A stretch of DNA of 64,000 nucleotides from an uncultured bacterium (GTDB lineage: Bacteria > Macinerneyibacteriota > Macinerneyibacteria > Macinerneyibacteriales > CAYRFE01), in NCBI GenBank assembly GCA_964423645.1, contig CAYRFE010000010.1, positions 21,264 to 85,263 of the forward strand, written 5' to 3'. Under the pieces are notes generated by a model. That model worked only from the letters and a program-made list of their open reading frames with translations, searched no databases and was not told the origin of the DNA. Within the stretch, counting starts at the first letter, position 1, and each line of letters begins with the position of its first letter. This document shows positions 39,290 through 57,209 of this stretch, in pieces. The translations under genes were made by a program, and so were the position numbers.

Positions 39290-39315
39290 TCCGCTTTAAA
39301 GACAGCAATACGATA

Positions 39316-39616: not shown

Positions 39617-40174
39617 TTATTTCAAAAGGTGCGTAAATTCATTTACTTTCACATAAAACTGTTCAAACAAGGTAATATACGGCGTTACATCACCGTGCGA
39701 TCGAAAAGCATCACGCAACGAAGTAAAATACCACAGTTGTTCATTATACCCTCTTTTGAAACGACTCCAGACTTCATCGCCTAAGCGCGCATGTTCATCG
39801 ATTAACGAGGATATATTATCAAGTTTATCGGCACATTCGACCACTCGGACAGTAAGTGATTGTGTCGATATTTTATCAATAGTGTGTCGCTTCCGCGCTT
39901 CCCATGAAAGTGACTTATCACATTCCGAACACTGCCTCACGATATCTGCAATCTCATTTCCGAATTCAACACCCAGTTGTTCATAAGTTAGATCAGTATC
40001 TTCAAGTGTATCATGCAACAAACCGGCAGCAACAATAATATCTCCTGCTCCCGCTCGAGTTAATCGCATGGCAACGCTGACCGGATGGACCAAATACGGC
40101 ACATCCATACCTTTACGACGTTGTCCGTCGTGCGCCATGGCGGCAAAAAATAGGGCTTTTTCGACAATTGTCAT
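39617..40174 (-). CDS. Small HD-domain alarmone ((p)ppGpp) hydrolase-like protein (SAH/Mesh1-type)
   Basis: 185 aa; HD motif context LVHPVSVAMRL...AAGLLHDTLEDT resembles the RelA/SpoT hydrolase domain. Confidence 0.7.
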   Translation of the reverse strand: MTIVEKALFFAAMAHDGQRRKGMDVPYLVHPVSVAMRLTRAGAGDIIVAAGLLHDTLEDTDLTYEQLGVEFGNEIADIVRQCSECDKSLSWEARKRHTIDKISTQSLTVRVVECADKLDNISSLIDEHARLGDEVWSRFKRGYNEQLWYFTSLRDAFRSHGDVTPYITLFEQFYVKVNEFTHLLK

Positions 40175-40185
40175 CTATTCAACAC

Positions 40186-41118
40186 TCATTTATCAATGAT
40201 AACTAAATTATTCATACGTGAAGATTCATAAATCGATTCTTCCAGAAGTTCCAATATATCGTCAATCGTTTTCATTTTCCGCACATACACCAAACCTTTG
40301 TCAAAACGAGCGGTAATTTCTTTGTCATGTAAAAACTTGCTCATTTCTTTTTCTATTCTATTGATAACGTCGATGATGGTCACCTCTTCAGGATTTTCCA
40401 AAATGACCATTAAACCGGTTCCTCCATGTAATGATATCGTATCAATGGCGCGAATATGTTTCTTTATTGTTTTGGCTAATCCTGCAACAGCAAGATCCAT
40501 CGTTGCCGACCCGTAACGTTTTTTCAATTCGATAAACTCATGATAGCGAGTATAAAAAACTGCAAAACATTGCTTGTGGCGACGTAACCGCTCAAGCACT
40601 TCCTGTAATTTGATATAGAAATAACTGGCACTGTATGCACCCGTTTCCTCATCATATACTGCCATATTATGTACCATCTCATCAAGGCTCATCGTTTTTA
40701 AAATAAATGCGGCAAGCATACTGATATTCTCGAAGAGCGTAAGGTCATCATCATGGAATTCACGTTCAGATGCCATTATTGAGAGACCAACAGTGACGTT
40801 TTTAACGGTCAATGGAAACAGATATACCGAACCGGGATTATTTTCCAACGGGTATTCGCTTCCTGCTCGCACACCTTCATGCGATTCAAAAGCTTTCGCG
40901 ATGCATTCATCAGTCAATGTCAACGTATTACTATTGATAAATGCCGCACTTACTCCACGTGCCATTTTTACACGGAAACGATCATGACTGAACACATATA
41001 ACACACATTGCTTTAAATGCAACTCTTTCATAAGCGCAGTCATCAGATTTGATAAAATTTCTTCATACGTTGACGCATGCGACACGTTTTTTAAAAATGC
41101 ATTATGTTTTTTTTGCAT
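40186..41118 (-). CDS. GAF-like domain plus degenerate GGDEF-like domain protein (predicted catalytically inactive)
   Basis: RYHEF where GG(D/E)EF is expected; start reassigned to Met 29 (41118), which has the RBS aaggagagggcATG. Confidence 0.6.
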   Translation of the reverse strand: MQKKHNAFLKNVSHASTYEEILSNLMTALMKELHLKQCVLYVFSHDRFRVKMARGVSAAFINSNTLTLTDECIAKAFESHEGVRAGSEYPLENNPGSVYLFPLTVKNVTVGLSIMASEREFHDDDLTLFENISMLAAFILKTMSLDEMVHNMAVYDEETGAYSASYFYIKLQEVLERLRRHKQCFAVFYTRYHEFIELKKRYGSATMDLAVAGLAKTIKKHIRAIDTISLHGGTGLMVILENPEEVTIIDVINRIEKEMSKFLHDKEITARFDKGLVYVRKMKTIDDILELLEESIYESSRMNNLVIIDK

Positions 41119-42787
41119 CGCCCTCTCCTTTATTTTGCTGCGTATGCAGCATCGTTTTCTTTTCGACATAAGAGCTCTGCACCACATAATCGGATCCCTC
41201 AAATTCTTTCACGACCGTCGATACATCATTCACCGCTGCAACAATTCGATCGAGCATCGCACGCTCTGAGGGGAATTTTCGCATCAATAATTCGATTGTA
41301 GCCAAGATCGTGGTAAGTGGCGAATTAATGCGATGATTAAGTGTTACCGAGAGATCATGCACAAGATGAAGTTTTTCTTTGACCACTTCTGATTCATCAG
41401 CACATAAGCGTAGATAGATCATGCCGGTATATGATAAAAAATCAACAATTTCTGCTAATTCTTCCTGAGAAACCATTCGCTTACTAAAGACGTTATCACC
41501 ATAAATGAATCCGCTGATTGTTCCGGGACCGGGTATAGGAAAAACATAATATGTGCTTGACCCGACTCTTTTTGTAAAACTTTGATGGAGTAAATTATCT
41601 TTTTCGGTATAAAACTCTTTATCGCCGAATGATTCCGGCATCGTAATAATCTGTTGAGAAAAAATATCAGGTTTGCAATCGGCAAGATACTCACGTAAAT
41701 GATACCCGTGAGTATTTTTATCAAAAAAGAATACTCTGTCAAAATGAAAATATGTAGTGAATGTCGTAAAAAAAGAAGTAAATGCTCGTGACGGATCACC
41801 ATATACTAAATCTTTTAAAAATTCATGCAAGAATTCCTGTTTATATAGACGTTTGTTAAGTGTGACGATGACATCTCGCGAGAATTCATGCTTTTCAGCG
41901 GCAAAAAATTTATGGATATTTTCAAAATCGTTGTAATATGATGTGTCAAGAGAATATGAATCCAAAAAATTCTTGATCTTCGGTAATACGCCGCCTATCA
42001 CCTCATCAAGAAGTGAAAGCGACATGAGCAATTCTTTCTCAGTGAAAATAAAAAAGTAGGGTAATTCTTCAATAATATGATTATGCAATACAGCCCATAC
42101 AAATTCTTCGCAAAAGGTCATTATCTTTCGATGCGAGGGATCTTCCGGAGAATGGAGATTACTACACGCTGCATCCACAAATGTTTGCGGTAAATGCCAT
42201 TTTTCAAGAATATATTTACTCAACGCAATGTGTGAAAAACCCAGTGACCGTATTTGTGACTCGAGAAACGTTTGAAGTGTTTCCGTATCTTTCTTGAGTA
42301 TATCGGAAAGTAGCTCATACTGAGTTTCATATAAAAACAAATACCCAATATGCCGTAACAACATTTGTGAAAACAGTATTCCTTGTATAGGAATGCCTTT
42401 TATCTGAGCAAGACGCTGGGTAAGTAACGCAGAGACAAACGAAAAAAGGAAAAAACGTTTTGTTTCTTCTTCCGGGACATTGGCAAATGATCGTGTGTGT
42501 TCATAAAATAAGACACATAACAACACCTCGCGTAATTTATCCAGCCCGAGTAGTGACACCGCATGTTGTATATCGGTAATTTTATGCGGTAAATAGTAAT
42601 AACCTGAATTTATTAAATTGAATACTTTTGCAGAGAGCATCGCATTCTGCTCCAACTCACTGCTTATCATTTTTATATCGGTTTCATCCGACATCAGTAT
42701 TTGAATGATTCGAATAACGATCGTCGATGGTAAATGATGATGATTCAGTAGAGTATCTATTGCCGAATAATCTATGCCTTGCGTCAT
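41102..42787 (-). CDS. HDOD-domain protein with a C-terminal HisKA-like dimerisation/phospho-acceptor segment and no ATPase domain
   Basis: N-terminal HDOD features; C-terminal [25 protein letters not shown] matches an H-box; the protein ends about 60 aa later. Confidence 0.65.
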
Positions 42788-43431
42788 ATCTTTAAGTACT
42801 TTCTTACCTTAACCTGCAAAAATAAAGGAAGAAGCGAGAGGGATCGGCTCACGACATTTTTATATCCCCTGATCGAATTATCGATCATATATACTAAGAG
42901 CACGTATTTTTCACTTACCTCCGCGGCGATCCAAAAATCTTTCACCAAAAACATATTGGATAAATCCGTTAAATACGTGATTAAGAAATCATGCGCGATC
43001 GCTCTGTTTCCTGAATTGGGATCCTTTTTAGCCGCATGTATCAGTGCTTTCAGTGCCATTTCTCGACGCTCGAACAAAACATACATTGCTTGGCGACGAA
43101 CCAGATAATTTCCGGAATACATCACCAGATTCACAATTTCTTCTGCAGGCATACGGCGAACAAGCGGATCAATAATATGAAAAAAGAAATATTTCTTTTT
43201 CGGTTTGGGCGTTATTTGCTTCACGGCCATATCCGGTTTCACTCGATAATCTATCGGCGTTCTGCAAACACTTGAATACGCATCTTGAATGTGTTTGAAT
43301 TTTTCAATATCTCCACCGGGATTATCGGGATGATACCGTTTTACAAGCGCACGATAGGCTCGTTTAATCTCTTCTTTGTGCGCATTTTTTGAAACACCCA
43401 GCACTTCATACCATACTTCGACATCGTTCAT
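42784..43431 (-). CDS. J-domain co-chaperone (DnaJ-like N-terminal domain only)
   Basis: [30 protein letters not shown] with an HPD motif; no Gly/Phe, Zn-finger or C-terminal DnaJ domains; ATGA overlap with the Hsp70 gene. Confidence 0.8.
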
Positions 43432-45143
43432 TCGTTGTGGCCCTCCGTAATAATACGTGCGGTTTCTATAAGTTCACGCAACACGGTGATATCTCTGTCT
43501 GCAATATGCCGATCAATATCTTGTATTAAATGCACTACATCTTCATGCTCGCTGTCGTGAGCTAATGTGGCATACTCATTTAACGCATCGATCATTGTGT
43601 GAGCAGTCGCAATAATTGACTCTTCTTTCTCATGAATCATCTCATCTTGTCGTTCGCTCTCTTCAATAATCGCTTGAACTTCTTCATCGGAAAGCGAACT
43701 CATGTTTTGAATTTCAAGTTCTTTCTTTACACCTGAGTGCATGTCCGCTGCTGATACGGACAATACACCGTTTTGATCCATACTGAACGTCACTTCAATA
43801 TCGGGTTCGCCCTTTTTCATGGCTTGGATATCCGTCAGCTCAAAACTCCCTAAAAAATGATTGTCTTTTACATTCGATGATTCACCTTGGAAAACCTTCA
43901 CTTCAACAATCTTCTGATAATCCGAAACAGTTGTAAAGTTCTGCATACGCGAGACCGGTATCGGCGTATTTCGTGTAATTAACGGCGCAAAAACACCTTT
44001 ATCTATTTCAATCCCTAAAGAAAAAGGAGTCACATCAACCAAAATCATATTCTCGCCAATTTCCCGCGTCACCACACCCTGTATAATCCCCGCCTGAATT
44101 GCCGCACCCATGGCAACACATTCATCGGGATTAATATTTTTATACGGTTTAGTATCGGAAAGGTCCTGCAGTTTTTTTTCTACGATAGGAATTCGCGTTG
44201 ATCCGCCAACCAATATCATCTTTGATAATTCACTGACTTTTACCTGTGCATCATCCAAAACACGATAAAACGGTTCATCAAGTTGATCAATATAATCATG
44301 TATCAAATCTTCGAATTGTGCACGAGTAAGCCGCATTTCTAAATGCCGAGGTCCAAGTTCATCGGCAGTAATAAACGGAATACTTATCGCAGTATGCTTC
44401 GCCTCAGACAATTCGACCTTCGCCTTCACCGATTGTTCATAAATACGCTGTAATGCCATACGATCGGTTGAAAGATCGATACCGGTTTCATTTAAAAAAG
44501 CCGACAATATATAATCTGCAATTCGAGTGTCAAAATCATCTCCCCCAAGCTTATTGTTTCCCGACGATGCAAGAACTTCAAAAACATTGTCTCCTACATC
44601 AAGGAGAGACACGTCATACGTCCCACCACCCAAATCCATGATGATTATACGCTCTCCGTCGGTTTGATTATTCGCTCCGTACGCCAGCGCTGCTGCAGTC
44701 GGTTCGTTAATGATACGTAATACGTTCAAACCTGCAATTTTAGCTGCCTGCATTGTCGCCGATCGTTGATTGTCATTAAAATATGCGGGGACTGTTATAA
44801 CGGCATCAGTGACACTGTCACCTAAAAAAACCTCTGCATCATCTTTCATTTTTCGCAATATAATTCCCGAAACTTCTTCGGGGGAATACTCAATGGAGTC
44901 AATTTTTATTTTTTCTTTTGTTCCCATCAAACGCTTTACGGATACTATTGTCCGTTCAGGACTTATAACCGCTTGATTTTTCGCACTTTGACCTACCAGA
45001 ATTTCCTTGTCTTTTGTCACTGCAACACAGGAAGGAGTAAGTCGCTCTCCTCTGTTATTGGGAATAATTTCCGGTTTGCCATCTTTTAAATATGCCATTA
45101 CCGAATTTGTGGTTCCCAGATCAATACCTATAGTAATACCCAT
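43428..45143 (-). CDS. Hsp70-family ATPase, short HscC-like form
   Basis: [20 protein letters not shown], Hsp70 substrate-binding beta domain; 571 aa with a truncated C-terminal lid. Confidence 0.88.
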
Positions 45144-45157
45144 AGCTGCTCCTTAAT

Positions 45158-45988
45158 TCAATCAAATAATAATTCACCATTTTTATGTGCGCTATCGGCT
45201 TCAGCAGTAATTGTCTCGATATCTGCGCCGGTCAATCCCAATGTACGTGCAGATTCCAGTTGCGTAAAATCGTGTGCTGTTTGATATAAACCAAATCCCA
45301 AATGATATGCCAACGCATCAGCGACATTGATATACACAGCCAAAGGGCTTTCGGCAGCTGCCGTCATATCATGATGAAAGCGAATACCATCTATAAGTGC
45401 ATCGCTGAATTTCCATTTTATTGCAATCTCCCGACCAATATCTGCATGAGTATATCCAAGAATCCGCAGTTCAGGATCCACAAAAGATTTTTTCATATCA
45501 TATACATCGGTAAGCACCAATTCATATTCCTTTTGAAACATTTGATACATAAATGTCTTTCCAAGATCATGTAACAATCCCGCGACAAAGGCTTCTTCAG
45601 GCACAGGATATTTTCGTATTTTCGCAATAGACCTCGCAACAAATGCAACAAATTGTGCGTGTTCCCATAGTTTTTTTGACACAAGAGACTTTGAATCAAA
45701 ATACATGTTTTTCGTTGAATATGCAACGACAAGATTGCGAACGGTGGATAAACCCAAAACAACCACCGCATCCCGCACGGTTGTGATTCGTCGTATTGTT
45801 GAGTAATATGCCGAGTTGGCCGTTTTCAAAAGTGCAGACGTCAACGCTTCATCCCGATATACGGCATCTTGAATCTCGCGTGCAGTAACATTTTCGTCAT
45901 GCAACAAATCGATGACTTGTCGAGCAACATGCGGCATGACAGCCAATTCTTGCAATCTATCCAGTACACCTTCCGGGACGTTATTCAT
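45158..45988 (-). CDS. HDOD-domain signalling protein
   Basis: 276 aa with the conserved HDLGK region. Confidence 0.8.
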   Translation of the reverse strand: MNNVPEGVLDRLQELAVMPHVARQVIDLLHDENVTAREIQDAVYRDEALTSALLKTANSAYYSTIRRITTVRDAVVVLGLSTVRNLVVAYSTKNMYFDSKSLVSKKLWEHAQFVAFVARSIAKIRKYPVPEEAFVAGLLHDLGKTFMYQMFQKEYELVLTDVYDMKKSFVDPELRILGYTHADIGREIAIKWKFSDALIDGIRFHHDMTAAAESPLAVYINVADALAYHLGFGLYQTAHDFTQLESARTLGLTGADIETITAEADSAHKNGELLFD

Positions 45989-46674
45989 ATCTCTCCTTCA
46001 ATTTTCATGATCGGTATAACAATTGACTGAACACATCCGGATGCTTCATGTTCTATACGATACACCCCCGCATGTTTTTCCGCCGTTCGTTTACAAAATG
46101 CCAACCCTAGATATATTGCACCTGTATAGTCGTGTGAAAAAGGATCGGGTACAATTTCAGGCACACGATACGAATCATCAACTTCACTGATCACTCGCAC
46201 CGTAAACATTTCGTCTTTAGCGGTCGTATACACACGAATAGTTCCTTTTTGTGTAATTGCGCAGGCATAGGTGATCATTTCAACAAGAGCTGATACCAAC
46301 TGATCTTTATCACAGCGGAGCATGGTTTCATGTGCAGTATCCTCGATAGTAATTTTTGATAACGGATGTATTGTCTGCCAACAATCTCTCAGCGCAACAA
46401 TATCTTCAACAATCGAACGCACGTCACAATCGTCCCACGTGTATTCGCGCCCTGTTTTTTCACGTACCGAACGAATATACGCACTCATTTCTTCAACGAC
46501 ATGGGCCATTTTCTTTTTCATTTCATCATTACCCTCGATGAATGTGGCATAATTGATCAAAAGAAAAAGGTAATTATTCAATTTGTGGGTCATTGCACTG
46601 ACTACTTCTCCGACAGATGTATTCCGTTGAAGATTAATAAATCGTTCGACCGATGATTGCTCATAAGTATTCAC
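45985..46674 (-). CDS. Minimal cytoplasmic histidine-kinase-like protein (DHp + CA core, no sensor or TM)
   Basis: H-box THKLNN; HATPase-like C-terminus with weak G-boxes; 229 aa; 5 nt downstream of cheA. Confidence 0.6.
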   Translation of the reverse strand: MNTYEQSSVERFINLQRNTSVGEVVSAMTHKLNNYLFLLINYATFIEGNDEMKKKMAHVVEEMSAYIRSVREKTGREYTWDDCDVRSIVEDIVALRDCWQTIHPLSKITIEDTAHETMLRCDKDQLVSALVEMITYACAITQKGTIRVYTTAKDEMFTVRVISEVDDSYRVPEIVPDPFSHDYTGAIYLGLAFCKRTAEKHAGVYRIEHEASGCVQSIVIPIMKIEGEI

Positions 46675-46679
46675 AAAGT

Positions 46680-48830
46680 TTACACTCCTGCGATTTCTTT
46701 TTTCACCATTCCTGCCATACCACTTACATCAATAATAAGAGAAACGCGCCCGTCACCTAATGTGCTCGCGCCTGAGATTCCGGGAATATTACCTAAATAT
46801 TCACTTAATGATTTAATGACTATTTCTTCTCTTCCTAAAAGTTCATCCACGAGCAAACCTAATTTTCGTCCGCCGACGGATACGATTACTACATAATACT
46901 CTTTTTTATTAACATCATAATTGGGGACATCAAATACTTCCGATAAACGTAACAATGGAAGAACCACGTCGCGCAAATTGAGCACTTCTTTATTATTAAT
47001 GGTTCGTATTTCGGAGAAAGTAACCTTGCTTGTTTCAATAACTGATGTTATCGGCACCGAGTATATTTCATCAGATACCGATACCAATAATGCCGTAACG
47101 ATCGCAAGTGTCAGCGGTAAGCGAACTTTCATTTTTGTCCCTTTACCAAGTTCGGTTGTAATCTCAATCATACCGTTCAGTTTTTGCACATTCGAACGTA
47201 CCACATCCATACCCACACCGCGTCCCGATGTATTGCTGACCAACTCAACCGTTGAAAAACCGGGGAGGAATATAATATTCAAAATTTCATTTTCACTCAT
47301 ATTTCTCAACGATGTTTCGTCAACAATACCTTTTTCTATCGCTTTGCGTGCAATTTTTTTGGTATCAATACCGCGTCCGTCATCTTCAACCTCAATGACA
47401 ATATTGTCACCTTCCTGATATGCCGAAAGATAGATCGTTCCGACCGCAGGCTTTCCCATTCTTTTACGCTCTTCCGGTGTCTCAATCCCGTGGTCAACGG
47501 AGTTACGAAGAATATGAACTAAAGGATCCCCTATATACTCCACGATCGATTTATCCAATTCTGTCTCTTCCCCAGAAATGATCAAATCAATTTCTTTGTT
47601 TTTTTCTCGTGCAAGAGTGCGAATCATACGCGGATATTTGTTGAACACTTTTCCAATAGGCAAAAGACGAGTTTTCATAACCGCCATCTGCAATTCAGAT
47701 GTCACAAAATTAATATTCGCAGTATTGTCGTTCAATTGTTCAATAAATTCATTATCCTTTGTCGACGATAATATACCCGAGATTCGCAAAAGTCTGTTCT
47801 TTGCCTGCACCAACTCTCCCACAAGATTCATCAGTTGATCCAGTCGCTTCACATCGACACGTATCGTCTGTTCAACGCCTCGCTCTTTCACTAAGGCACT
47901 CGCATTTTTCTGCTCAACGGGAATATCATCTTTGTTCTTATCAGACGAGGTTTGCTCATGCTTGTGCGCTTCACCGGTAAGTTGAGCCAATTTGATCATG
48001 ATCGATTTTGTCTCGACTTGCGGTTGTTTTCCCTCTTTTAGATCTTTGTTGATTAATTGCAATTTATCGATTCCCTCAAGCATACCGTCAACAAGTTCTC
48101 GCTCGAGCGTAAATACTCCATCTCGAATTTTATTAAGAATATCTTCAATTTTATGTGCAACTTCAGCCATTTGATTCACACCAATAAAACCTGCAGATCC
48201 CTTCACCGTATGTATTTTACGATAAAAATCATTCAAAATTTCTTTGTTATCCTTATGTTTCTCCCAATTCACCAACTCTTGACTCAAAAAATCAAGATTT
48301 TCTTCCGCCTCAATGACAAATTCTTGCAACACCTCGCGAAGCACTTCGTCTTTAAAATATCCGGGTTGTGCATCATCCTCGGCATCCTCATCGATATGTT
48401 CGTCTTTGATTTTCACATCGGGTACTTGGACGACACTGTCTTCACTCGCCTTCTCAAGTCGTTGGATCAATTGTTGTATATCCACAGATTCCGGGTCACC
48501 TTTGCTGATTTGTTCAAGTAATTGCTTCATATTATCCATTACGACAAATAACATATCAACAATTTCAGGTGTTGCTTCCATTTCATTTTTACGCAATTTA
48601 TTGAGCACATCCTCGGCATGATGCGTGAGTTTGGTTAAGACATCAAATCCTAAAAATGATGCCGAACCCTTAATAGTATGCGCCGAACGAAATATACTAT
48701 TAAGTAAATCAAGATTTTGCGTGTCCTTCTCAAGCTCAAGAAGGTCTTTTTCCATTTGATCTAACAGTTCATTCGATTCTATAATAAAATCCTGAATGAT
48801 ATTATCCATGTCATCTGAACGGGGTGTCAT
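46680..48830 (-). CDS. cheA: Chemotaxis histidine kinase CheA with two tandem HPt (P1) domains
   Basis: HTIKGSASFLGF and HTVKGSAGFIGV phospho-acceptor motifs; dimerisation, HATPase (DDGRGID, GRGVGMDVV) and CheW-like domains. Confidence 0.92.
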   Translation of the reverse strand: MTPRSDDMDNIIQDFIIESNELLDQMEKDLLELEKDTQNLDLLNSIFRSAHTIKGSASFLGFDVLTKLTHHAEDVLNKLRKNEMEATPEIVDMLFVVMDNMKQLLEQISKGDPESVDIQQLIQRLEKASEDSVVQVPDVKIKDEHIDEDAEDDAQPGYFKDEVLREVLQEFVIEAEENLDFLSQELVNWEKHKDNKEILNDFYRKIHTVKGSAGFIGVNQMAEVAHKIEDILNKIRDGVFTLERELVDGMLEGIDKLQLINKDLKEGKQPQVETKSIMIKLAQLTGEAHKHEQTSSDKNKDDIPVEQKNASALVKERGVEQTIRVDVKRLDQLMNLVGELVQAKNRLLRISGILSSTKDNEFIEQLNDNTANINFVTSELQMAVMKTRLLPIGKVFNKYPRMIRTLAREKNKEIDLIISGEETELDKSIVEYIGDPLVHILRNSVDHGIETPEERKRMGKPAVGTIYLSAYQEGDNIVIEVEDDGRGIDTKKIARKAIEKGIVDETSLRNMSENEILNIIFLPGFSTVELVSNTSGRGVGMDVVRSNVQKLNGMIEITTELGKGTKMKVRLPLTLAIVTALLVSVSDEIYSVPITSVIETSKVTFSEIRTINNKEVLNLRDVVLPLLRLSEVFDVPNYDVNKKEYYVVIVSVGGRKLGLLVDELLGREEIVIKSLSEYLGNIPGISGASTLGDGRVSLIIDVSGMAGMVKKEIAGV

Positions 48831-48843
48831 AAAACCTACCTCC

Positions 48844-49425
48844 TTATTTTAGCGCAAAAGCTAAATCTTTCGACAACAACGGGACCGCTTTCTTATGCAT
48901 TTGCAATCGAATCCTTTGAGTCACTTTTTTTGCTCCTAAACTTCCATAAGAAAGCACAGGATACGCGAATATCCGTTCGTTTGATTCTACATGCTCATCA
49001 TGCGTCGTATAGACGGTCATATAGATAACATAATGAGCAACAAGATCACCCTTCTCCGCGACAAAAGGAATCGACGTTTTTTTGTCTTTTACAATATCAG
49101 TTTCACGCAGAGATACGGTTATCACGCGGTCATACCCTTTTCGCCCGTATGATGCCATTTCATGCACAATTCTTGCAGCATCAAATGCACCTCTATCATA
49201 GTGAGTATACTCCATCTGATGCGCTGAATCAAGTGAATTTTCAATGGTCATCTGCCACAGCTCATTCGTATAAGGATACCGATCCCAACCGTCGCCTAGT
49301 ATAATCATCACTCGTTCAGCTTTGAGCAACCCAATCATTGAAAATACCCCAATACACAACATGATACATTTTCGCACCGGATTTAACAGATCCGATACGT
49401 GTGATCTTTGACTCCGTCTTTTCAT
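48844..49425 (-). CDS. Hypothetical secreted or membrane-anchored protein
   Basis: N-terminal hydrophobic segment; tightly packed in the operon. Confidence 0.5.
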   Translation of the reverse strand: MKRRSQRSHVSDLLNPVRKCIMLCIGVFSMIGLLKAERVMIILGDGWDRYPYTNELWQMTIENSLDSAHQMEYTHYDRGAFDAARIVHEMASYGRKGYDRVITVSLRETDIVKDKKTSIPFVAEKGDLVAHYVIYMTVYTTHDEHVESNERIFAYPVLSYGSLGAKKVTQRIRLQMHKKAVPLLSKDLAFALK

Positions 49426-49730
49426 GAGTGCCCCCGCGCTTTCTTGTTTAAACGGTATAAAAACGCATATATTTCTGCGACCACGACAAAGGCATTCTCC
49501 GGTATTTCATGCTCAACTTCGATCGTATCCAGCAGTGAAACAAGATCTTTATCCTCAACAAGGGGAATATGATGCTCTTTGGCAATAGAGATGATCGCTT
49601 CCGCGATATGACCCCAGCCTTTTGCTGACACTTTCGGCGCATGTGCAGTATCCGCGTCATACGTAAGAGCGACTGCCTTTTTGATCAAATCACGCCCTTT
49701 CATACTACGACGTCTATGCCTTCTTCGCAC
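49422..49730 (-). CDS. FlhB C-terminal-domain-only protein (EscU/YscU/FlhB family, YlqH-like)
   Basis: VALTYDADTAHAPKVSAKGWGHIAEAIISIAKEHHIPLVED...VVAEIYAFLYRL parallels the B. subtilis YlqH / FlhB cytoplasmic domain. Confidence 0.8.
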   Translation of the reverse strand: MRRRHRRRSMKGRDLIKKAVALTYDADTAHAPKVSAKGWGHIAEAIISIAKEHHIPLVEDKDLVSLLDTIEVEHEIPENAFVVVAEIYAFLYRLNKKARGHS

Positions 49731-50551
49731 TGAAACGCGAGCATTAAAATAGGATCATGCAATATTCCCGAATGCTTCACCGTTAATGATGCAACCGAAA
49801 TACCTTTTTCATGCAATGCAGTACGCAATTCTCGGAATGCCCCCTGAATGATACGTGCTGAATCTTCCGTCGCAGTATACATATGAATACCTATTGTTGA
49901 GTGCCATTGACGAACGACGGCAAGAATCGTTCCAAGAGATGATAACTCAGCCATTATACGGTACTCTTCCATTCCGGTCGAGTTTTTCGGTGTATACGAA
50001 AAATAGCCGTCTCGCAATAATTCATTCTCCACATAGGGAAATGCCATAAAAAACATCCCTTTTTCACCATATTCTTGTGAAATGATCTTATCAAATTGTG
50101 CATGACGCAATATATCATCTGCTTCTTTTTCATTCGTAAGCAACGGGGAAACCGGTATTTTTGATAATTCCGATTGTTCCTGTAAAAATTCTTTGGTTAA
50201 TTCGGTATCCGGTGATTTAATCACAATCCCGGGCAACCGTATCTGAAGAAAGGTCTTGAAAAAAGCGGCGAGCTTGGGTTCTGCTGACTCGAAAAGCTTG
50301 GGTAAAACCTTTTCCATGTTCACCAGTTCCAAAACCGGCAGTGGCGAAAGTGATTTTACTCGTACAAATATACCTTCCTTATCCTGTAATATCATTTCAG
50401 ACGCCGCAGTTAAAACCGAGCCTTGTATTTTAATCGAAAAAAGATTATTCCCGAGCTGCTCCTGTACCACGGCATGGTATAAGCCGCCTTTAATAAAAAC
50501 AGGAAGCGGTTTCCCCTGCTGCAGGTGTAGTTGGATCGTATCAACGCGCAT
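49700..50551 (-). CDS. Hypothetical protein in the flagellar operon
   Basis: 283 aa; no motif recognised; co-directional and overlaps its neighbours. Confidence 0.5.
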   Translation of the reverse strand: MRVDTIQLHLQQGKPLPVFIKGGLYHAVVQEQLGNNLFSIKIQGSVLTAASEMILQDKEGIFVRVKSLSPLPVLELVNMEKVLPKLFESAEPKLAAFFKTFLQIRLPGIVIKSPDTELTKEFLQEQSELSKIPVSPLLTNEKEADDILRHAQFDKIISQEYGEKGMFFMAFPYVENELLRDGYFSYTPKNSTGMEEYRIMAELSSLGTILAVVRQWHSTIGIHMYTATEDSARIIQGAFRELRTALHEKGISVASLTVKHSGILHDPILMLAFQCEEGIDVVV

Positions 50552-51224
50552 CTCTTGCCTTCAACGCCTTAAGTTTTATAATAAAATCGACCTCACCCGG
50601 TGAAATATTAAAACGACGACTGAGAGTGATCTTATCTGTTCCGTTCACAAACAAACCATACACCGCGTCATAGTCCAAGGTTTGGGAGTCTGTGCTTTTT
50701 TTCTGCATCTCGATACAAGTATTGATGTTTTTTACACCATTACCGGCTTTTAACACCAAGTCACCGATGCCTGCAGCTTCAGGTGCTTTTTCTAAATACT
50801 TCCCGACCTCATCTATTAAATCTTTCATGACAATCTGTAATTTTTGTATCTCCTCACGACTGCCTTTTCGAATCCTACGTTCTCGCGAGAGAAAAAGTAC
50901 GATTATAATAATGATCAATATTAAAAACACACCATAAAATATCATCTCACGTTCACGTATACGAAGCGGAGAGTTTTTAATGGAATCAAGCTCCTGACGC
51001 TCTTCAAGTAACCGCTGTTGTTCAATTTCAAGCTCTCTTAACAATCGCTCATATCGAACTTTTTCCGTCTCTTCCGTTTTTTGAGCAAAGACGGGTGCAC
51101 TTGCAGTTGTGAAAAAAAGAATGAAAAGACTAACCCTTAATATCAATTTCGCTCCCCTTTGAGTCGGTGTACTCAACATGTTTGTTTTTTGTATATACCG
51201 CGCAAAAATATTCTTTCTTCCCAT
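50541..51224 (-). CDS. Membrane protein with signal peptide, coiled coil and TM helix (likely start Met 51179)
   Basis: MLSTPTQRGAKLILRVSLFILFFTTASAPVFAQ; EKVRYERLLRELEIEQQRLLEERQEL; IFYGVFLILIIIIIVLFL. Confidence 0.5.
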   Translation of the reverse strand: MGRKNIFARYIQKTNMLSTPTQRGAKLILRVSLFILFFTTASAPVFAQKTEETEKVRYERLLRELEIEQQRLLEERQELDSIKNSPLRIREREMIFYGVFLILIIIIIVLFLSRERRIRKGSREEIQKLQIVMKDLIDEVGKYLEKAPEAAGIGDLVLKAGNGVKNINTCIEMQKKSTDSQTLDYDAVYGLFVNGTDKITLSRRFNISPGEVDFIIKLKALKARDAR

Positions 51225-51462
51225 TTTTTTCCCGCCTCCGCCTTCTATGTCGCCTACTTTCGTCGCGATCCTCCCCGTGTAATTCGACTATATCTTCCTG
51301 TTGTACTTCGTGAACTTTTTCTATTTTTTCCCGCTGCTCTGTTTTATCGGCATCCCGCACATGTCCTTGTTGCGCGAACGCAGCTTCTTTATTGACACTC
51401 TGCACCTTTTCAACCGAATCACTCCCAGTGATATTAATGCGCACATCATTAATTTTCATCAT
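51130..51462 (-). CDS. Candidate FlgM-like anti-sigma-28 factor (110 aa) immediately downstream of fliA
   Basis: Start codon abuts the fliA stop; begins MMKINDV like Firmicute FlgM (MKIN...); hydrophilic and probably disordered; the C-terminus overlaps the next ORF by about 50 nt. Confidence 0.4.
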   Translation of the reverse strand: MMKINDVRINITGSDSVEKVQSVNKEAAFAQQGHVRDADKTEQREKIEKVHEVQQEDIVELHGEDRDESRRHRRRRREKNGKKEYFCAVYTKNKHVEYTDSKGSEIDIKG

Positions 51463-52209
51463 TTATACCAATGTTTTTAACACCCGCCGCAATCGATGAA
51501 GTGCTGATGCCCGAATTTGTGATACACGTGATTCACTGACACTTAATACGGCACCAATCTCTTTCAAATTGAGTTTCTCATAGTAATAGAGAATAATCAC
51601 AAGCTTTTCCGTTTCAGGTAATGAAGAAACAGAGTCCTTCAGTGCCTCGAATATTTCTTCGATCTCTAATTTTTCTTGCGCCGAGGGATTATTTTTATCT
51701 TCAATGATTGATATGAAAGAATCATGATCAAAAGTCAATTCCGTGTCATATGACAACACCGCCAATGAGTCCAATTGACCTATCACTGCATAATATTCAT
51801 CGACTGTCATATCGGCTTCTTGTGCTATATCTTCCGGTTGCGGTTCGGTTTTCAACCGAACTCTCAGTACGTCTATCGCATGATTGATAATTTTCTCTTT
51901 AGCCCGAAGCGTACGTGAAACCGCGTCATGTTGACGTAAGTAATCCCAAATCGAACCTTTAATGCGTCGATATGCAAACGTGATGAACTCAACACCTTTC
52001 GTGGGGTCAAAATTATCAACCGCTTCGATAAGTCCGACACACCCGACACTCACGAGTTCATGTCGATCGATGCCGTCAAACGACGCAACAGCCATACTGC
52101 CGACAATTTTTTTCACTAAAGTAAGATAATACTCAATAATTTTCGATCTGACCGATTCCGTCTTATTGAGTCGAAAATCTTCCCACAGCGCGAACTCATC
52201 CTTCAACAT
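51463..52209 (-). CDS. fliA: Flagellar sigma factor FliA (sigma-28)
   Basis: Sigma-70 regions 2 and 4 in sigma-28 arrangement; context after flhF-flhG. Confidence 0.88.
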   Translation of the reverse strand: MLKDEFALWEDFRLNKTESVRSKIIEYYLTLVKKIVGSMAVASFDGIDRHELVSVGCVGLIEAVDNFDPTKGVEFITFAYRRIKGSIWDYLRQHDAVSRTLRAKEKIINHAIDVLRVRLKTEPQPEDIAQEADMTVDEYYAVIGQLDSLAVLSYDTELTFDHDSFISIIEDKNNPSAQEKLEIEEIFEALKDSVSSLPETEKLVIILYYYEKLNLKEIGAVLSVSESRVSQIRASALHRLRRVLKTLV

Positions 52210-52483
52210 TCAGGTTGTCTCCTTTATCATTCTCACTGTTCCGTCTTTTGGTCGAATGTAATACATCGCGCAACCGTTTATGTTCCATTTCATTCACAAT
52301 GACGGTCTCCAATATTTTTCCAAGTGCAGAAAAAAAGAAAAAAATGACCGCGGCTCCGGCAGCGATATACCAAAAATCCGCTTTTTTACCGTACAATAAA
52401 AATGCCGCGGCAAATGCCGCAATACCGGCAACCACAACCACTCCATGATGCAATATGACGAGAGAATCATCGTGGGTCATCAC
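52196..52483 (-). CDS. Small two-TM membrane protein
   Basis: 95 aa with two hydrophobic helices; overlaps both neighbours. Confidence 0.45.
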   Translation of the reverse strand: MMTHDDSLVILHHGVVVVAGIAAFAAAFLLYGKKADFWYIAAGAAVIFFFFSALGKILETVIVNEMEHKRLRDVLHSTKRRNSENDKGDNLNVEG

Positions 52484-53103
52484 ATACCGCCGATATAATA
52501 GTAAAATTTCATTCGCTCTTCTTCTGAAAGACTCACAAATTGAACCCCGACCAAATATCCGTCACCTTTCACGTCAACACGCTTTGCATATCCAAATACA
52601 CGAGTTTTCGGACCTTTAGGGAAAAATATCGTTAACTCAATATTTTGTTCATCTTCAAACGGATATTGTGTGGTGATCATACCGCCGCCTGCGCTCATAT
52701 CAATGAATGTCCCCTGCTGATCACGCCAATCAACACTCGGTAAGGGAAGAATTCGCATCGTTACGGGAATTGCACATTCGCGTCGCTCATACTGACGCCG
52801 ATTAGACTCTTTTATGTTTTTCGGATACTCGATACCCAGCATCGGTTCAGGATCAAGAGTTCTACTGACAATGCGCACATAAAATTCAAACATTCGCTGA
52901 GACTCAAAGTAAAAGCAACGCACTATCTCACCGCGAGGCAACGGCATGATCATACCGTTTTTCGAGGGTGTAGAGACGGTAAATGTTGCATTCTTTTGTA
53001 TGCCGAGAATTTGTGTTCGGTACACGCCGGCATACGGATCACCGAAAATCTCAATAAATATTCGCATCTTCTCTTTTAATTGACGACCACCGAACAAACT
53101 CAC
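52480..53103 (-). CDS. PilZ-domain protein, YcgR-like c-di-GMP-binding flagellar brake candidate
   Basis: RRQYERRE (RxxxR) and DMSAGGG (DxSxxG) c-di-GMP-binding motifs plus an N-terminal YcgR-like domain. Confidence 0.8.
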   Translation of the reverse strand: MSLFGGRQLKEKMRIFIEIFGDPYAGVYRTQILGIQKNATFTVSTPSKNGMIMPLPRGEIVRCFYFESQRMFEFYVRIVSRTLDPEPMLGIEYPKNIKESNRRQYERRECAIPVTMRILPLPSVDWRDQQGTFIDMSAGGGMITTQYPFEDEQNIELTIFFPKGPKTRVFGYAKRVDVKGDGYLVGVQFVSLSEEERMKFYYYIGGM

Positions 53104-53945
53104 TTTTTCACCCCCAAAAACGCAAGGGCCTTTGAAAAGAAATTCATTGTCTGTTCATTTTGGGGTTTTCTTTTTATAAGATCTTTCGCAATCTGTCGGA
53201 AACATCCCGATGACATCGACTGCGGGTGCCGTAAAAACACCGGTGTTTGTTCTCGCACAGACTGCTTTAAGCGTTCATCATATAACACATACCCGAAATA
53301 CGTTACTCCGTATTTTAAAAACTTTGTTGACACAAGATTTAATTTTTCAGCTACGTCAACGGCGTCTTTTTTATTATTAACCATATTTACCACGAGTTTC
53401 AACGACGTATCCGGATTATTTCGTGTAATGACCTTTATCATCGCATATGCATCAGTCATGGCCGTTGGATCAGGAGTAGTGATAATGATCGTTTCATCAC
53501 ATGCGTAAATAAAACTCATAACATTTGCACTCATACCGGATCCTGTATCGATAAGTAAAAAATCATATGCGTCTTCCAATTTTGCAAGGTGAAAGGCCAG
53601 GCGATTATGATCATTTTCCGATAACTCACTCATTTCCTGCACACCGCTTGCGGCAGGAACTATCGCAATACCTTCAGGTCCCTGGACGATGACATCATCA
53701 AAAGAGCGTTCATTTCTCAAGAAATGAACCAAATTGTATCTCGGACGGATACCATAGAGGACATCCACGTTACCCAAGCTCAGGTCGGCATCGAAAATGC
53801 ACACGGTCTTTCCCTCGGCACGAAGCGCAAGAGCAACATTTGCGACAAAGTTTGATTTCCCCACTCCTCCCTTACCACTCGTAATAGTGATAATCCGTCG
53901 TTCTTTACCAACGAGTTGCGAAAGGGAATATGCTTGATTCTCCAT
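53100..53945 (-). CDS. flhG: Flagellar number regulator FlhG (MinD/ParA-type ATPase, YlxH)
   Basis: Deviant Walker A SGKGGVGKS. Confidence 0.88.
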   Translation of the reverse strand: MENQAYSLSQLVGKERRIITITSGKGGVGKSNFVANVALALRAEGKTVCIFDADLSLGNVDVLYGIRPRYNLVHFLRNERSFDDVIVQGPEGIAIVPAASGVQEMSELSENDHNRLAFHLAKLEDAYDFLLIDTGSGMSANVMSFIYACDETIIITTPDPTAMTDAYAMIKVITRNNPDTSLKLVVNMVNNKKDAVDVAEKLNLVSTKFLKYGVTYFGYVLYDERLKQSVREQTPVFLRHPQSMSSGCFRQIAKDLIKRKPQNEQTMNFFSKALAFLGVKK

Positions 53946-53947
53946 AC

Positions 53948-55120
53948 TTATACTCCTTTAAGAAGTTTTGTCACAAGGTACTTTTTATCGGCGGTCAAAA
54001 TGTCTTCCGGTATATTCTGTCCATTGGTAACGTACGCCAACGGACGATTTACATTAATACTCATGGATAAAAGAAATCCGAATGTGGTCGTTTCGTCAAG
54101 TTTTGTAAAGATGATTTTATCAATGCGAAAGACGTTAAAGCGTTTGACCGTCTCATACATATCGCGAATCTTAGATGTTGCCGATAATACACAATATACT
54201 TCATCCGGGCTCAAAATAGTGCAGTATTTCTCTAGTTCTTCCAGACTTCTCGTATCACCCGGAGATCGACCGATCGTATCAACAAAAATAACATCTTTAT
54301 CCGAAAAACGTCGCATCGCGCCGGAAATATCGTCTGCGGTATAAGCAATCTCAATCGGAAGATCAAGAATATTCGCAAACGTTTTCAATTGCTCAACCGC
54401 GCCCAAACGAAAAGTATCAATCGTTAATAATCCCACTTTTTTATTTTGATAAATAACCGCATTCGCTGCCAATTTCGCAAGAGTGGTGGTCTTCCCCACG
54501 CCCGTCGGACCGATAAACATAACAACATAATTACTTTTTTTAATAGAGATTCCTTTTGACAGCGATAACAGATCGCCGGCAATACTGCGAAGACGTTCAT
54601 TAATTGTCTCAGGAGATACTTCTCCAAGTTCTTTGTACAACTTGTCGACGACTTGATAGGCAATATATTCTTCTACATCATTACTCATAAGTTTTATGAA
54701 TAACTCTTTGTAATACCCGGAAAACGTTATTCGATCCTGCACGAGCACGGTTTCTTTGAGTTGCTCTATGGTCGTTCGCAATCCCGCGATCTCCTGTTCA
54801 ATGGCTTTTGCAGAAAACGTAGTCGTACTGCTGTATTCAGCTTTGGGACGAATATTCTCCCTCATCGGAGCAACCTCAACCACAGACTCCATATACGAAT
54901 CATTGTCTTCTGCCGGAGGGGCAACCGTAATACCGGATGAATCGGCAGGTTCATAATCGATCGCCGCAGTCACTTCGATCTCTGTCTTACCGATCATACC
55001 TAAAAAACCGTCTTTGACAACCTGTTGCGTCTTCAGTATGACCGCATTTGCGCCAAGTTCGTTGCGAACCATCTTTAACGCATCTTTTATACTGTCTGCA
55101 CGAAATTTCTTGATCTTCAT
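53948..55120 (-). CDS. flhF: Flagellar biosynthesis GTPase FlhF
   Basis: SRP-type GTPase motifs GPTGVGKTTT, DTIGR. Confidence 0.9.
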   Translation of the reverse strand: MKIKKFRADSIKDALKMVRNELGANAVILKTQQVVKDGFLGMIGKTEIEVTAAIDYEPADSSGITVAPPAEDNDSYMESVVEVAPMRENIRPKAEYSSTTTFSAKAIEQEIAGLRTTIEQLKETVLVQDRITFSGYYKELFIKLMSNDVEEYIAYQVVDKLYKELGEVSPETINERLRSIAGDLLSLSKGISIKKSNYVVMFIGPTGVGKTTTLAKLAANAVIYQNKKVGLLTIDTFRLGAVEQLKTFANILDLPIEIAYTADDISGAMRRFSDKDVIFVDTIGRSPGDTRSLEELEKYCTILSPDEVYCVLSATSKIRDMYETVKRFNVFRIDKIIFTKLDETTTFGFLLSMSINVNRPLAYVTNGQNIPEDILTADKKYLVTKLLKGV

Positions 55121-57174
55121 GACTGCACTCCAATCATACCTATTACCTGAACCGAAATACCCGGATCAATTTCATTATACGACAAAACGGTGGCATCGGG
55201 GAAATATCCTTCAATTAATCGTCTGTAATACGGTCTCACGTTGGGAGACACAAGAAATAACGGTGGAATTCCCTTGTCGGTGCTTTGTTTCTTTATAGAA
55301 TCAACTACTCGTTTATATAATCCGGGTTCTAACGATACATTCATGCCGAATGTTGTTTGTTTCAATGAAGAGACGATCGTCTGCTCAAGCTCCGGATCGA
55401 GTGTAAATGCTTGTAGAGTTCCCGCATTGAGATAATTATGAATAAACTGTTTGGAAAGCGATAACCGAACATATTCGGTCAGAATATCGATATCCTTCAC
55501 TGTATCAATGTAATCGGCAACGGTCTCAAGGATCGTCGTCATATCTCGCACAGATATTCCCTCATGTAAAAGATTTTGAAGTATTTTTTGAAGATTTCCG
55601 ACAGATATTTTCCCGGGTATGATCTCGTCCACAACCACTGCATTTTGCTTCTTTGCATTGTCAATGAGCTCATTGACATCCTGGCGGGTTATTATTTCAT
55701 CTGCACGGCGTTTAATGAGTTCAGTAAGATGAGTGGCAATAACCGCCGCAGGTTCTACCACGGTATAGCCGAGCACTTCAGCACGTTCTTTATCCTCTTT
55801 CCGTATCCACGTAGCGGCAAGATTAAAAACCGGTTCAATCGTTTGTATACCCTCGATCTCTCCGGTGACAGTACCCGGGTTCATGGCGAGCACATACTCG
55901 GGCATCAACTCTCCGTTCCCCGCTTCCACGCCTTTGATATTTATCGCATATTGATTCGGTTTCAACTGCATATTATCGCGAATTCGAATAGGAGGCATGA
56001 TAAAACCGACATCCATTGCGATTTGTTTTCGTATCATTGATATCCTGCTTAAAAGGTCTCCGTCACGTTCCTTGTCGACAAGAAAAATCAAACCGTATCC
56101 GATCTCAAGCTCAAGCGTATCAACCTGCATCATTGACCCGATCTCTTTACGTTCGTCTTCGGGTGTCATCACCTGTGAGGCATCTTCCGAAGCCTTCATT
56201 TTCGCCGCTTCGGTCGCAGCAAGAGCTTCTGTTTTGACGGTCGCTTTCATAGTATACGCGATTGACCCGAATATTGCGGCAAGCACAAGAAACGGCAGCG
56301 CGGGAAAACCCGGCATGAATGCAAAAAAAGCCAAAGAAATCGCGGCGACGATCAACGCACGAGGTTGCCCTGTCATTTGTTTAATAAACTCACTGCCGAA
56401 ATCAGACTCACTCGCGGCACGCGTCACGATCATACCAGCCGAGGTTGAAATAATAAGAGCAGGCATTTGTGAAACAAGTCCGTCACCAACGGTTAAAATC
56501 GTATACGTTGCACCTGCAACATCCCAGGGCATGCCCTTTTGTGCGATACCGACGATAAATCCGACAACAATATTTAAAACGGTAATAATGATACCCGCGA
56601 TTGCATCACCGCGCACGAACTTCGATGCTCCGTCCATCGCGCCGTAAAAATCTGCTTCTCGGCGAATTTCCTCACGACGACGACGTGCTTCGCCTTCATC
56701 GATCATGCCGGCATTGAGATCGGCATCAATCGCCATCTGCTTTCCGGGCATTGCATCAAGAGTAAAACGTGCGGCAACTTCGGCAATACGGGTCGCGCCT
56801 TTCGTGATGACCACAAATTGAATAATGACCAATATAACAAAGATCGTAAAACCGACAATGTAATTTCCTCCAACCACGAAATTACCGAATGCGGCAATGA
56901 TACGCCCCGCCTCCGCATTAAGAAGAATGGAACGAGTGGTCGCCACATTCAATGACAATCTGAAAAGCGTCATTACAAGCAGTATCGACGGATATGCCGA
57001 AAGCTCCAACGGTTTTATGATATAGATCGTAATAAACAATAAAAGAACAGACCCGGCAATATTCGCCGCGATGAGAAAATCAAGCAAAAATTGAGGTACG
57101 GGAATGATCATGAGCAATATTACGCCCATAACGGCAAGCGGCACTGCAATACTGTATATCGCACGATTATTCAT
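55117..57174 (-). CDS. flhA: Flagellar export apparatus protein FlhA
   Basis: FlhA TM region and FHIPEP motifs; start set at ATG 57174 (MNNRAIYSIA...) rather than the TTG at 57189. Confidence 0.93.
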   Translation of the reverse strand: MNNRAIYSIAVPLAVMGVILLMIIPVPQFLLDFLIAANIAGSVLLLFITIYIIKPLELSAYPSILLVMTLFRLSLNVATTRSILLNAEAGRIIAAFGNFVVGGNYIVGFTIFVILVIIQFVVITKGATRIAEVAARFTLDAMPGKQMAIDADLNAGMIDEGEARRRREEIRREADFYGAMDGASKFVRGDAIAGIIITVLNIVVGFIVGIAQKGMPWDVAGATYTILTVGDGLVSQMPALIISTSAGMIVTRAASESDFGSEFIKQMTGQPRALIVAAISLAFFAFMPGFPALPFLVLAAIFGSIAYTMKATVKTEALAATEAAKMKASEDASQVMTPEDERKEIGSMMQVDTLELEIGYGLIFLVDKERDGDLLSRISMIRKQIAMDVGFIMPPIRIRDNMQLKPNQYAINIKGVEAGNGELMPEYVLAMNPGTVTGEIEGIQTIEPVFNLAATWIRKEDKERAEVLGYTVVEPAAVIATHLTELIKRRADEIITRQDVNELIDNAKKQNAVVVDEIIPGKISVGNLQKILQNLLHEGISVRDMTTILETVADYIDTVKDIDILTEYVRLSLSKQFIHNYLNAGTLQAFTLDPELEQTIVSSLKQTTFGMNVSLEPGLYKRVVDSIKKQSTDKGIPPLFLVSPNVRPYYRRLIEGYFPDATVLSYNEIDPGISVQVIGMIGVQS

Positions 57175-57180
57175 ACCGCC

Positions 57181-57209
57181 ATTATACAATTTTTACGTTT
57201 AAAAGTCAA
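57181..57209 (-). promoter_or_regulatory. Perfect sigma70 consensus promoter TTGACT-N17-TATAAT abutting the flhA start
   Basis: Minus strand reads GTTGACTtttaaacgtaaaaattgTATAATggcggtATG; only 6 nt separate the -10 from the ATG. Confidence 0.6.

Follow-up and report, generated by a model that had tools for sequence, protein, structure and literature searches.

The distal flagellar superoperon combines genes for FlhF and FlhG, FlgV (a protein with two transmembrane helices), sigma-28, FapA, a small YjfB protein and a transmembrane (TM) protein that also carries a helix-turn-helix (HTH) domain, and its modules have been described for spirochaetes, Firmicutes and other phyla (Zamba-Campero et al., bioRxiv 10.1101/2024.01.09.574855). 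The flgB operon of B. burgdorferi comprises 31 genes, bb0294-bb0264, and has a consensus sigma-70 promoter (bioRxiv 10.1101/2024.01.09.574855). Here we describe an array of 19 consecutive minus-strand genes, running from flhA to a gene for a small alarmone hydrolase, in a 64,000-nucleotide stretch of DNA from an uncultured bacterium of the Macinerneyibacteriota (contig CAYRFE010000010.1, positions 21,264 to 85,263; henceforth the window, with position 1 as its first letter). The array is the distal half of a flagellar superoperon, separated from flhB and the proximal genes. Other long flagellar operons offer points of comparison. In P. putida, flhAF-fleN-fliA-cheYZAB-...-flrD forms a 14-gene operon transcribed from PflhA, and a fliK2-flhX pair lies in the same cluster as a separate operon on the opposite strand that depends on FliA. 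The fla/che operon of B. subtilis is a very long, sigma-A-driven unit in which flhA, flhF and flhG come ahead of cheA, followed further on by sigD and then a small membrane protein. Finally, the FlhX protein of H. pylori (HP1575) is a homologue of the C-terminal part of FlhB.

The open reading frame (ORF) listing and the junction analysis place the ATG of flhA at 57174 and the stop codon of the alarmone hydrolase gene at 39617. At each of the 18 junctions between these points, the spacing lies within -17 nt (an overlap) to +14 nt (a gap), a range that rests on start codons agreeing with independent gene calls on the contigs of relatives. The widest gaps separate the HDOD and Hsp70 genes (14 nt) and orf193 and cheA (13 nt), ATGA or GTGA overlaps of 4 nt occur at seven of the 18 junctions, and GGAG-type ribosome-binding sites precede nearly every internal gene. 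Alternative starts would lengthen two of the overlaps, to 95 nt if orf201 began at 51224 and to 101 nt if the GGDEF gene began at the TTG at 41202. An earlier note on this DNA (henceforth the original prediction) had claimed 19 co-directional ORFs with gaps of 14 nt or less, short overlaps and ATGA couplings, all of which the ORF list and junction table bear out. Its gene identities proved correct in Pfam and NCBIfam searches, on which the assignments below are based; motifs (Walker A, RxxxR, DxSxxG, HT[IV]KG, HPD and HDxxED) were read directly from the sequence. From flhA onward, the genes are:

55117..57174, minus strand: flhA, export gate (FHIPEP 889 bits; TIGR01398 883.9 against a cut-off of 772)
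53948..55120, minus strand: flhF, GTPase of the signal recognition particle type (SRP54 domain; TIGR03499 233 against a cut-off of 174), joined to flhA by an ATGA overlap
53100..53945, minus strand: flhG, MinD/ParA-type ATPase (ParA, AAA_31 and CbiA domains; deviant Walker A motif SGKGGVGKS)
52480..53103, minus strand: YcgR-like receptor for cyclic di-GMP (c-di-GMP), with PilZNR (PF12945, 64 bits) and PilZ (PF07238, 46 bits)
52196..52480, minus strand: orf94, 94 residues, two TM helices and a polar tail, in the position of FlgV (alignment A6)
51463..52209, minus strand: fliA, sigma-28 (TIGR02479 FliA_WhiG 219.8 against a cut-off of 189.6)
51130..51459, minus strand: orf109, 109 residues, in the position of YjfB-like proteins, conserved in 4 loci (alignment A1)
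50541..51224, minus strand: orf201, TM protein of about 201-227 residues with a C-terminal HTH-like domain, DUF6115-like, starting at 51146 or 51224
49700..50551, minus strand: FliK-like protein of the FliK2 type (Flg_hook 28.6 bits, just below the cut-off of 29.8)
49422..49703, minus strand: FlhX, 93 residues, FlhB C-terminal domain only (Bac_export_2 70 bits, profile positions 262-334)
48844..49425, minus strand: orf193, 193 residues, lineage-specific, N-terminal hydrophobic segment, conserved in 5 loci (alignment A7)
46680..48830, minus strand: CheA, with Hpt (P1) in two stretches, H-kinase_dim (P3), HATPase_c (P4) and CheW (P5) domains
45985..46674, minus strand: small histidine-kinase-like protein, 229 residues (HATPase_c 21 bits, weak and below cut-off), conserved in relatives
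45158..45988, minus strand: HDOD/HD protein (HDOD 186 bits)
43428..45143, minus strand: short Hsp70 paralogue, 571 residues (HSP70 620 bits)
42784..43431, minus strand: J-domain protein with a HEAT-like C-terminal part (DnaJ 56.8 bits; HPD present)
41102..42787, minus strand: HDOD protein (101 bits) with a HisKA-like end (23.7 bits, below cut-off) and no ATPase domain
40186..41118, minus strand: GAF and degenerate GGDEF protein (GGDEF 49.7 bits; GGTGL; RAID I-site retained), last conserved gene of the array
39617..40174, minus strand: small alarmone hydrolase, 185 residues, 19th gene (HD_4 54.9 against a cut-off of 27.2)

The upstream neighbour of flhA is a divergent pxpA gene (LamB_YcsF), followed by pxpB and pxpC, and no full-length flhB lies upstream of flhA in the window. 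The original prediction was thus right that flhA comes first with pxpA divergent and flhB absent before it, and likewise that an FlhB C-terminal-domain-only protein sits in the middle of the array.

The array keeps to the superoperon string, though not in every detail. Both PilZNR and PilZ score above cut-off in the YcgR-like protein, with the RxxxR (RRQYERR) and D/NxSxxG (DMSAGG) motifs intact, as expected of the YcgR type. The location of orf94, between flhG/pilZ and fliA, agrees with the description of the FlgV family; it has an Asp before its second TM helix. The five lineage members compared all have Tyr in place of the Type-1 arginine within that helix, whereas L091, a metagenome-assembled genome (MAG) of Spirochaetota, has the arginine. 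For orf109, Pfam and NCBIfam gave no match, and hhalign to its positional equivalents gave E = 0.13. The C-terminal HTH-like segment of orf201 aligned by hhalign to positional equivalents in five distant loci (91% probability, E = 9.5e-7), and the orthologue in L003, a related public assembly, matches DUF6115 (31.3 bits against a cut-off of 27). The ambiguous start of orf201 gives an overlap with orf109 of 17-95 nt, and synonymous-site conservation is raised exactly there. A metagenome scan with the orf201 alignment returned no match, and a literature search on DUF6115 turned up nothing useful; orf201 might conceivably be SwrB-like. The FliK-like protein matches a 609-residue ORF preceding FlhX in the distant locus L025 (phmmer E = 7.9e-6). 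FlhX falls in the size range of such proteins (about 80-95 residues), is homologous to the FlhB C-terminal subdomain alone and has no TM region; among NCBIfam families it comes closest to TIGR00789 flhB_rel, scoring 102.6 where the cut-off is 117.35. No FapA domain was found in any of the 19 array proteins, and FapA is present in L091 and in two further distant loci, L007 and L008.

Set beside the superoperon, the array shows flhA-flhF-flhG, a protein with two TM helices, sigma-28, a small protein and a TM-HTH protein in the same order. The sigma-70 consensus promoter at the head and the long co-directional layout also recall the B. burgdorferi flgB operon, and a short Hsp70 near the distal end is seen as well in the Spirochaetota MAG L091. 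The array differs in being detached from flhB and the proximal genes, in lacking FapA, in having a PilZ gene inserted after flhG, in the missing Type-1 arginine and in the leaderless start predicted below; it further adds the FliK2-FlhX, CheA, HDOD, kinase-like and degenerate GGDEF genes. In Pseudomonas, too, flhA heads a long operon linking the export gate, FlhF/FlhG, FliA and CheA, and a pair of FliK-like and FlhB-C-only genes occurs within the flagellar cluster. There, however, the promoter is sigma-54/FleQ-dependent and the operon holds cheY, cheZ, cheB, cheW and motCD, whereas the window promoter is sigma-70-like and its CheA stands alone among HDOD, Hsp70 and GGDEF genes. The B. subtilis fla/che operon likewise is a long sigma-A-driven unit joining flhA, flhF, flhG, cheA and sigD, but flhB precedes flhA, che genes lie between flhG and sigD, and PilZ, FlhX, HDOD and Hsp70 genes are not known to be part of it. 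H. pylori FlhX matches the window protein in length (about 90 residues), in corresponding to the FlhB C-terminal subdomain and in having no membrane domain; the window FlhX differs in lying inside an flhA-headed array directly behind a FliK-like gene.

How unusual the absence of flhB from this position is can be gauged from a background sample of 80 diverse metagenomic flhA loci, collected by an FlhA scan (44-53% identity) and biased in composition. By strict criteria, full-length flhB directly precedes flhA in 56 of the 64 loci with enough upstream DNA, and it is clearly missing in only three (L016, L071 and L084), so that within this biased sample flhA-first loci are in the minority. The run of genes seen in the window recurs in five of the background loci, as fliA, a gene X, an ORF of about 100 residues, a TM-HTH gene, a FliK-like gene and FlhX.

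The arrangement is conserved among close relatives. A CheA scan of the contigs in the genome collection yielded one relative only, the MAG L001, whose CheA is 87% identical to that of the window; public assemblies added L003 (CheA 70% identical), L005 (FlhA 89%) and L006 (FlhA 92%). As far as their contigs extend, these relatives repeat the gene order of the window between flhA and the GGDEF gene, with all 18 genes in L001 and L003 and part of the array in L005 and L006. In each relative with a recovered upstream region (L001, L005 and L006), flhA is also the first gene and has no flhB before it. The junctions stay tight, with a largest gap of 34 nt (in L003). DNA identity per gene is low (41-83% in a five-way nucleotide alignment), and the kept order and spacing are therefore informative. 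Conserved, closely spaced junctions at which genes carry Shine-Dalgarno sites are a hallmark of polycistronic units. By contrast with these 18 genes, the 19th is not conserved. L001 has, directly behind the GGDEF gene, a T-run hairpin and a further promoter-like site, and then a gene for an aromatic amino-acid lyase; in L003, two different small co-directional genes take this place. Upstream of flhA the neighbouring gene varies too: the window and L006 have pxpA there, L001 a LuxR-type gene and L005 a gene for a short-chain dehydrogenase (SDR). The conserved unit is thus one of 18 genes with plastic ends.

The original prediction had proposed comparison with Treponema, Borrelia and Brachyspira. 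The operon logic is common with spirochaetes; a close tie to these genera was not found in our searches. No named spirochaete appears among the 120 matches listed for FlhA or CheA. Outside the lineage, the best FlhA identity is 56%, with Synergistetes, Zixibacteria, Latescibacteria, KSB1, Calditrichaeota and Lutispora among the matches listed, and CheA reaches 43-46% near full length, to Latescibacterota and Calditrichia among the matches listed; Chrysiogenetes, Deferribacteres and Campylobacterota supply further matches over part of the length. Hsp70 is at best 57% identical outside the lineage, to various sources among the matches listed, one of them a Spirochaetota MAG at 49%. With no named spirochaete in the listed matches and identities outside the lineage of at most 57%, a spirochaete origin is unsupported.

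The consensus promoter that had been noted at the head of the array is present:

57181..57209, minus strand: sigma-70-type promoter TTGACT-17-TATAAT (11/12 matches), its -10 hexamer ending 6 nt before the flhA ATG

Both hexamers, the 17-nt spacing and the 6 nt to the ATG are identical in the window, L001, L005 and L006, in flanks that are otherwise unalignable, and the promoter is kept despite the differing upstream neighbours (pxpA, LuxR-type and SDR). The spacer between the -10 hexamer and the ATG is fixed in length and variable in sequence (GGCGGT, GGCGAT or GACGGT). When per-locus scans were compared in alignment columns, TTGACT-17-TATAAT was the only site both strong and conserved. A transcript starting 7 nt after the -10 hexamer would begin on the A of the flhA ATG, and flhA lacks the Shine-Dalgarno site that the following genes have. 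Because the -10 hexamer ends 6 nt before the ATG and a Shine-Dalgarno site is missing, we predict a leaderless flhA mRNA. The promoter-to-ATG architecture recurs, again with no Shine-Dalgarno site, at two more first genes in the window, so that leaderless first genes seem a recurring trait of this genome:

14679-14715, plus strand: near-consensus promoter and start of a putatively leaderless first gene, Wzy-like O-antigen ligase (TTGTCA-16-TATAAT, 6 nt, ATG at 14713)
38425-38464, plus strand: near-consensus promoter and start of a putatively leaderless first gene, RluA-type pseudouridine synthase (TTGAGA-17-TACAAT, 8 nt, ATG at 38462)

The pxpA/flhA intergenic region measures 126 bp and also holds a divergent promoter-like site for pxpA (57229-57256, TTGACC-16-TATCAT with TG), which points away from the flhA promoter, with 19 bp between the two -35 boxes.

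At the opposite end, the array is followed by a repeat:

39306..39579, minus strand: two tandem copies of a 134-bp repeat (Tandem Repeats Finder, 2.0 copies, 92% match), candidate terminator of the array

Each 134-bp copy contains two GC-rich hairpins, CCCCTCCC-N9-GGGAGGGG and GTGGGGAC-TTCG-GTCCCCAC, and the repeat folds with -40 kcal/mol (z = -3.0). Further copies lie directly 3' of a gene for a methyl-accepting chemotaxis protein (MCP; 2743-2786, minus strand) and of a glycosyltransferase gene (22212-22255, plus strand), and every copy shares the orientation of the gene it follows. The repeat was not found in the relatives' loci examined. We take it to be probably a dispersed terminator or RNA-stabilising element resembling repetitive extragenic palindromes (REPs). 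The small plus-strand ORFs at 39286-39534 and 39417-39656 are probably spurious.

Taken together, these features lead us to think it on balance probable that the array is transcribed as one long message from the head promoter, and co-transcription of all its genes is plausible. Transcription would start at the conserved housekeeping-type promoter on the A of the flhA ATG, giving a leaderless flhA message, and RNA polymerase would read across no fewer than the 18 conserved genes, and in this genome also the alarmone hydrolase gene, before the transcript ends at the repeat element with its GC-rich hairpins. For translation, each downstream gene would rely on a Shine-Dalgarno site of its own, in many cases with coupling through the 4-nt overlaps. 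One transcript would then co-express FlhA, the FlhF/FlhG control of flagellar placement and number, the PilZ c-di-GMP brake and sigma-28, together with the FliK2/FlhX accessory export-switch proteins, the chemosensory kinase, the c-di-GMP-linked signalling proteins and the Hsp70/J-protein pair.

Several points weigh against a single leaderless transcript, and some of them suggest nested transcription units instead, in which the head promoter would drive flhA-flhX and hidden internal promoters, some FliA-dependent, would drive FliK2-FlhX, cheA-to-GGDEF or the Hsp70 pair with separate regulation. In both analogues mapped by experiment, the flhA operon of P. putida and the flgB operon of B. burgdorferi, long co-transcription occurs side by side with internal promoters that lie in coding sequence. 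In the former these stand upstream of flhF, cheA and parC, and the fliK2-flhX pair depends on FliA; the latter shows three predominant internal transcription start sites and several processed ends (bioRxiv 10.1101/2024.01.09.574855). Moreover, the block behind FlhX is lineage-specific, with different genes after FlhX in other lineages, a 285-nt gap precedes the Hsp70 gene in L091, and the hairpins at the end of the array lack a canonical T-run. The pattern scan of the window also returned many weak sigma-70-like matches on both strands, many of them at 9-10/12. Against nested units, no internal match is both strong and conserved, intergenic space amounts to at most 14 nt in the window and at most 34 nt in L003, and across the array the relatives showed neither a conserved internal sigma-70 site nor a conserved terminator. 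The original prediction of no internal terminators or strong promoters needs qualification here: an 11/12 sigma-70-like match (44533..44506) and a hairpin with a T-run (52422..52405) do exist, and both were rejected as internal signals on the ground that neither is conserved in relatives. Synonymous-site conservation forms no islands outside gene overlaps, peaking solely where reading frames overlap (orf94/fliA and orf109/orf201), and an Rfam scan of the window gave no match. We found no conserved sigma-28 site of the TAAA-N15-GCCGATAA type in the array, by a scan whose consensus may not be the lineage's own, so that FliA-dependent internal promoters could escape it; a GCCGATAA sequence at about 51351 was dismissed as such a site, being kept in neither L001 nor L003. 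We regard nested units as quite possible, if short of probable. Within a single long transcript, too, internal starts, weaker internal promoters or RNA processing likely modulate the array, by analogy with these operons.

The head of the array invites a separate objection, namely that TTGACT-17-TATAAT is not a working promoter and that flhA starts 15 nt upstream, to be expressed from an unrecognised promoter farther up, for instance one dependent on a flagellar master regulator. Automated gene calls in L001 and L005 indeed start flhA 15 nt upstream, at an ATG/TTG inside the -10 hexamer, and if this start is right, the leaderless reading is incompatible with it. Class II flagellar genes of many polar flagellates, moreover, use sigma-54 with an activator. 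Yet a motif scan detected no sigma-54 motif anywhere in the window, the sequence upstream of the -35 hexamer is not conserved between loci, and a Shine-Dalgarno site precedes neither candidate start. Among the four loci, the five codons in question show no third-position and two second-position changes, a pattern that looks like promoter constraint and fits coding constraint less well. An upstream start would also leave no reason for an invariant -35 hexamer at exactly 17 nt, and two more window genes show a promoter, 6-8 nt and then an ATG. We consider this objection very unlikely to be correct, and read flhA as the probably leaderless first gene behind a housekeeping-type promoter.

The genes behind FlhX bring signalling and chaperone functions into the array. 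For orf193, Pfam and NCBIfam gave no family match and a single-sequence AlphaFold2 model was unusable (predicted local distance difference test, 33). In CheA, the two P1 domains, P3, P4 and P5 score above cut-off, each Hpt being complete with an HT[IV]KG phospho-acceptor motif, and a P2 domain was not detected. Distant CheA relatives (43% identity) sit in ordinary che clusters with CheW and CheR plus HEAT-repeat and HDOD proteins (L007 and L008), where CheY and CheB occur variously and HDOD genes also adjoin cheA. Of this company, the window array retains CheA and the HDOD genes alone; cheW, cheY, cheR and cheB were not found among the window ORFs scanned. Two MCP genes are present in the window, at 450-2534 and 2855-4522.

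The Hsp70 and J-domain genes belong to a two-gene module, encoding an Hsp70 of 570-583 residues followed by a J-domain/HEAT_2 protein, that recurs in unrelated genomes (L089, 10001-12483; L090, 3352-5834; L091, 10001-12628). The window J-domain protein aligns with the L089 J/HEAT_2 protein beyond the J-domain and, in L091, the pair comes directly after fliR-flhB-flhA-flhF-flhG-159aa-fliA-FapA-228aa. BB0264, the product of the last gene of the Borrelia flgB operon, is an Hsp70 as well in the B31 annotation; a literature search on Hsp70 in the flgB operon turned up nothing useful. It is more fitting to view Hsp70/J-HEAT as a specialised pair, repeatedly associated with flagellar clusters, than as genes of the general stress response. 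The label of stress-signalling genes in the original prediction is accordingly to be revised for this short-Hsp70 and J/HEAT pair, which also ends a Spirochaetota flagellar cluster. For the alarmone hydrolase, a stand-alone HD protein with no synthetase domain and with the HDxxED motif LLHDTLEDT, the identity was correct, and the gene is a genome-specific add-on.

In the last conserved gene, the GGDEF active-site motif is degenerate in all three orthologues (GGTGL, GGTSI and HANEF; alignment A3), and the protein is therefore not a diguanylate cyclase. An R-x-I-D (RxxD) motif is invariant five residues upstream of the active site, which is the canonical I-site distance. This suggests that the GAF-GGDEF protein binds c-di-GMP rather than making it.

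The array is a tidy version of something familiar and does not represent a new kind of system. Since it is well established that long flagellar operons can mix genes for export, number control, sigma-28 and chemotaxis, current views are not overturned; mildly novel are the leaderless consensus-promoter architecture and the linkage of the Hsp70/J-HEAT pair to flagellar clusters. The finding documents the re-cutting and re-wiring of a deeply conserved flagellar gene string in an uncultured lineage, in which flhA has come to stand first, its consensus promoter perfectly conserved and its start probably leaderless, and in which the 3' end acts as a plastic site where signalling genes dock. It now becomes possible to test whether a large membrane protein is expressed from a leaderless message and whether the short Hsp70/J-HEAT pair has a role linked to the flagellum. 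One could go further and read the array as a distal superoperon fused with a c-di-GMP-linked chemosensory module (two-Hpt CheA, HDOD, GGDEF-derived receptor and Hsp70/J-HEAT) in one leaderless housekeeping-promoter transcript, where the GC-rich discriminator GGCGGT would render the promoter sensitive to guanosine tetra- and pentaphosphate ((p)ppGpp) and Hsp70/J-HEAT would be a conserved chaperone of flagellar or chemoreceptor assembly that the lineage shares with spirochaetes. We offer this joint reading as a speculation that is unlikely to hold as a whole; if it were true, the appended alarmone hydrolase would complete a loop through which nutrient state and motility feed back on each other.

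Elsewhere in the window, two tandem paralogous minus-strand genes (32966-38258) encode large DUF3160 proteins of 852 and 874 residues, the second of which also has tetratricopeptide-repeat-like matches. In mid-window, positions 11643-28135 hold a large polysaccharide biosynthesis cluster with genes for ManC, sugar transferases, GT2/GT4 glycosyltransferases and Wzy-like, DegT and Polysacc_synt_2 proteins.

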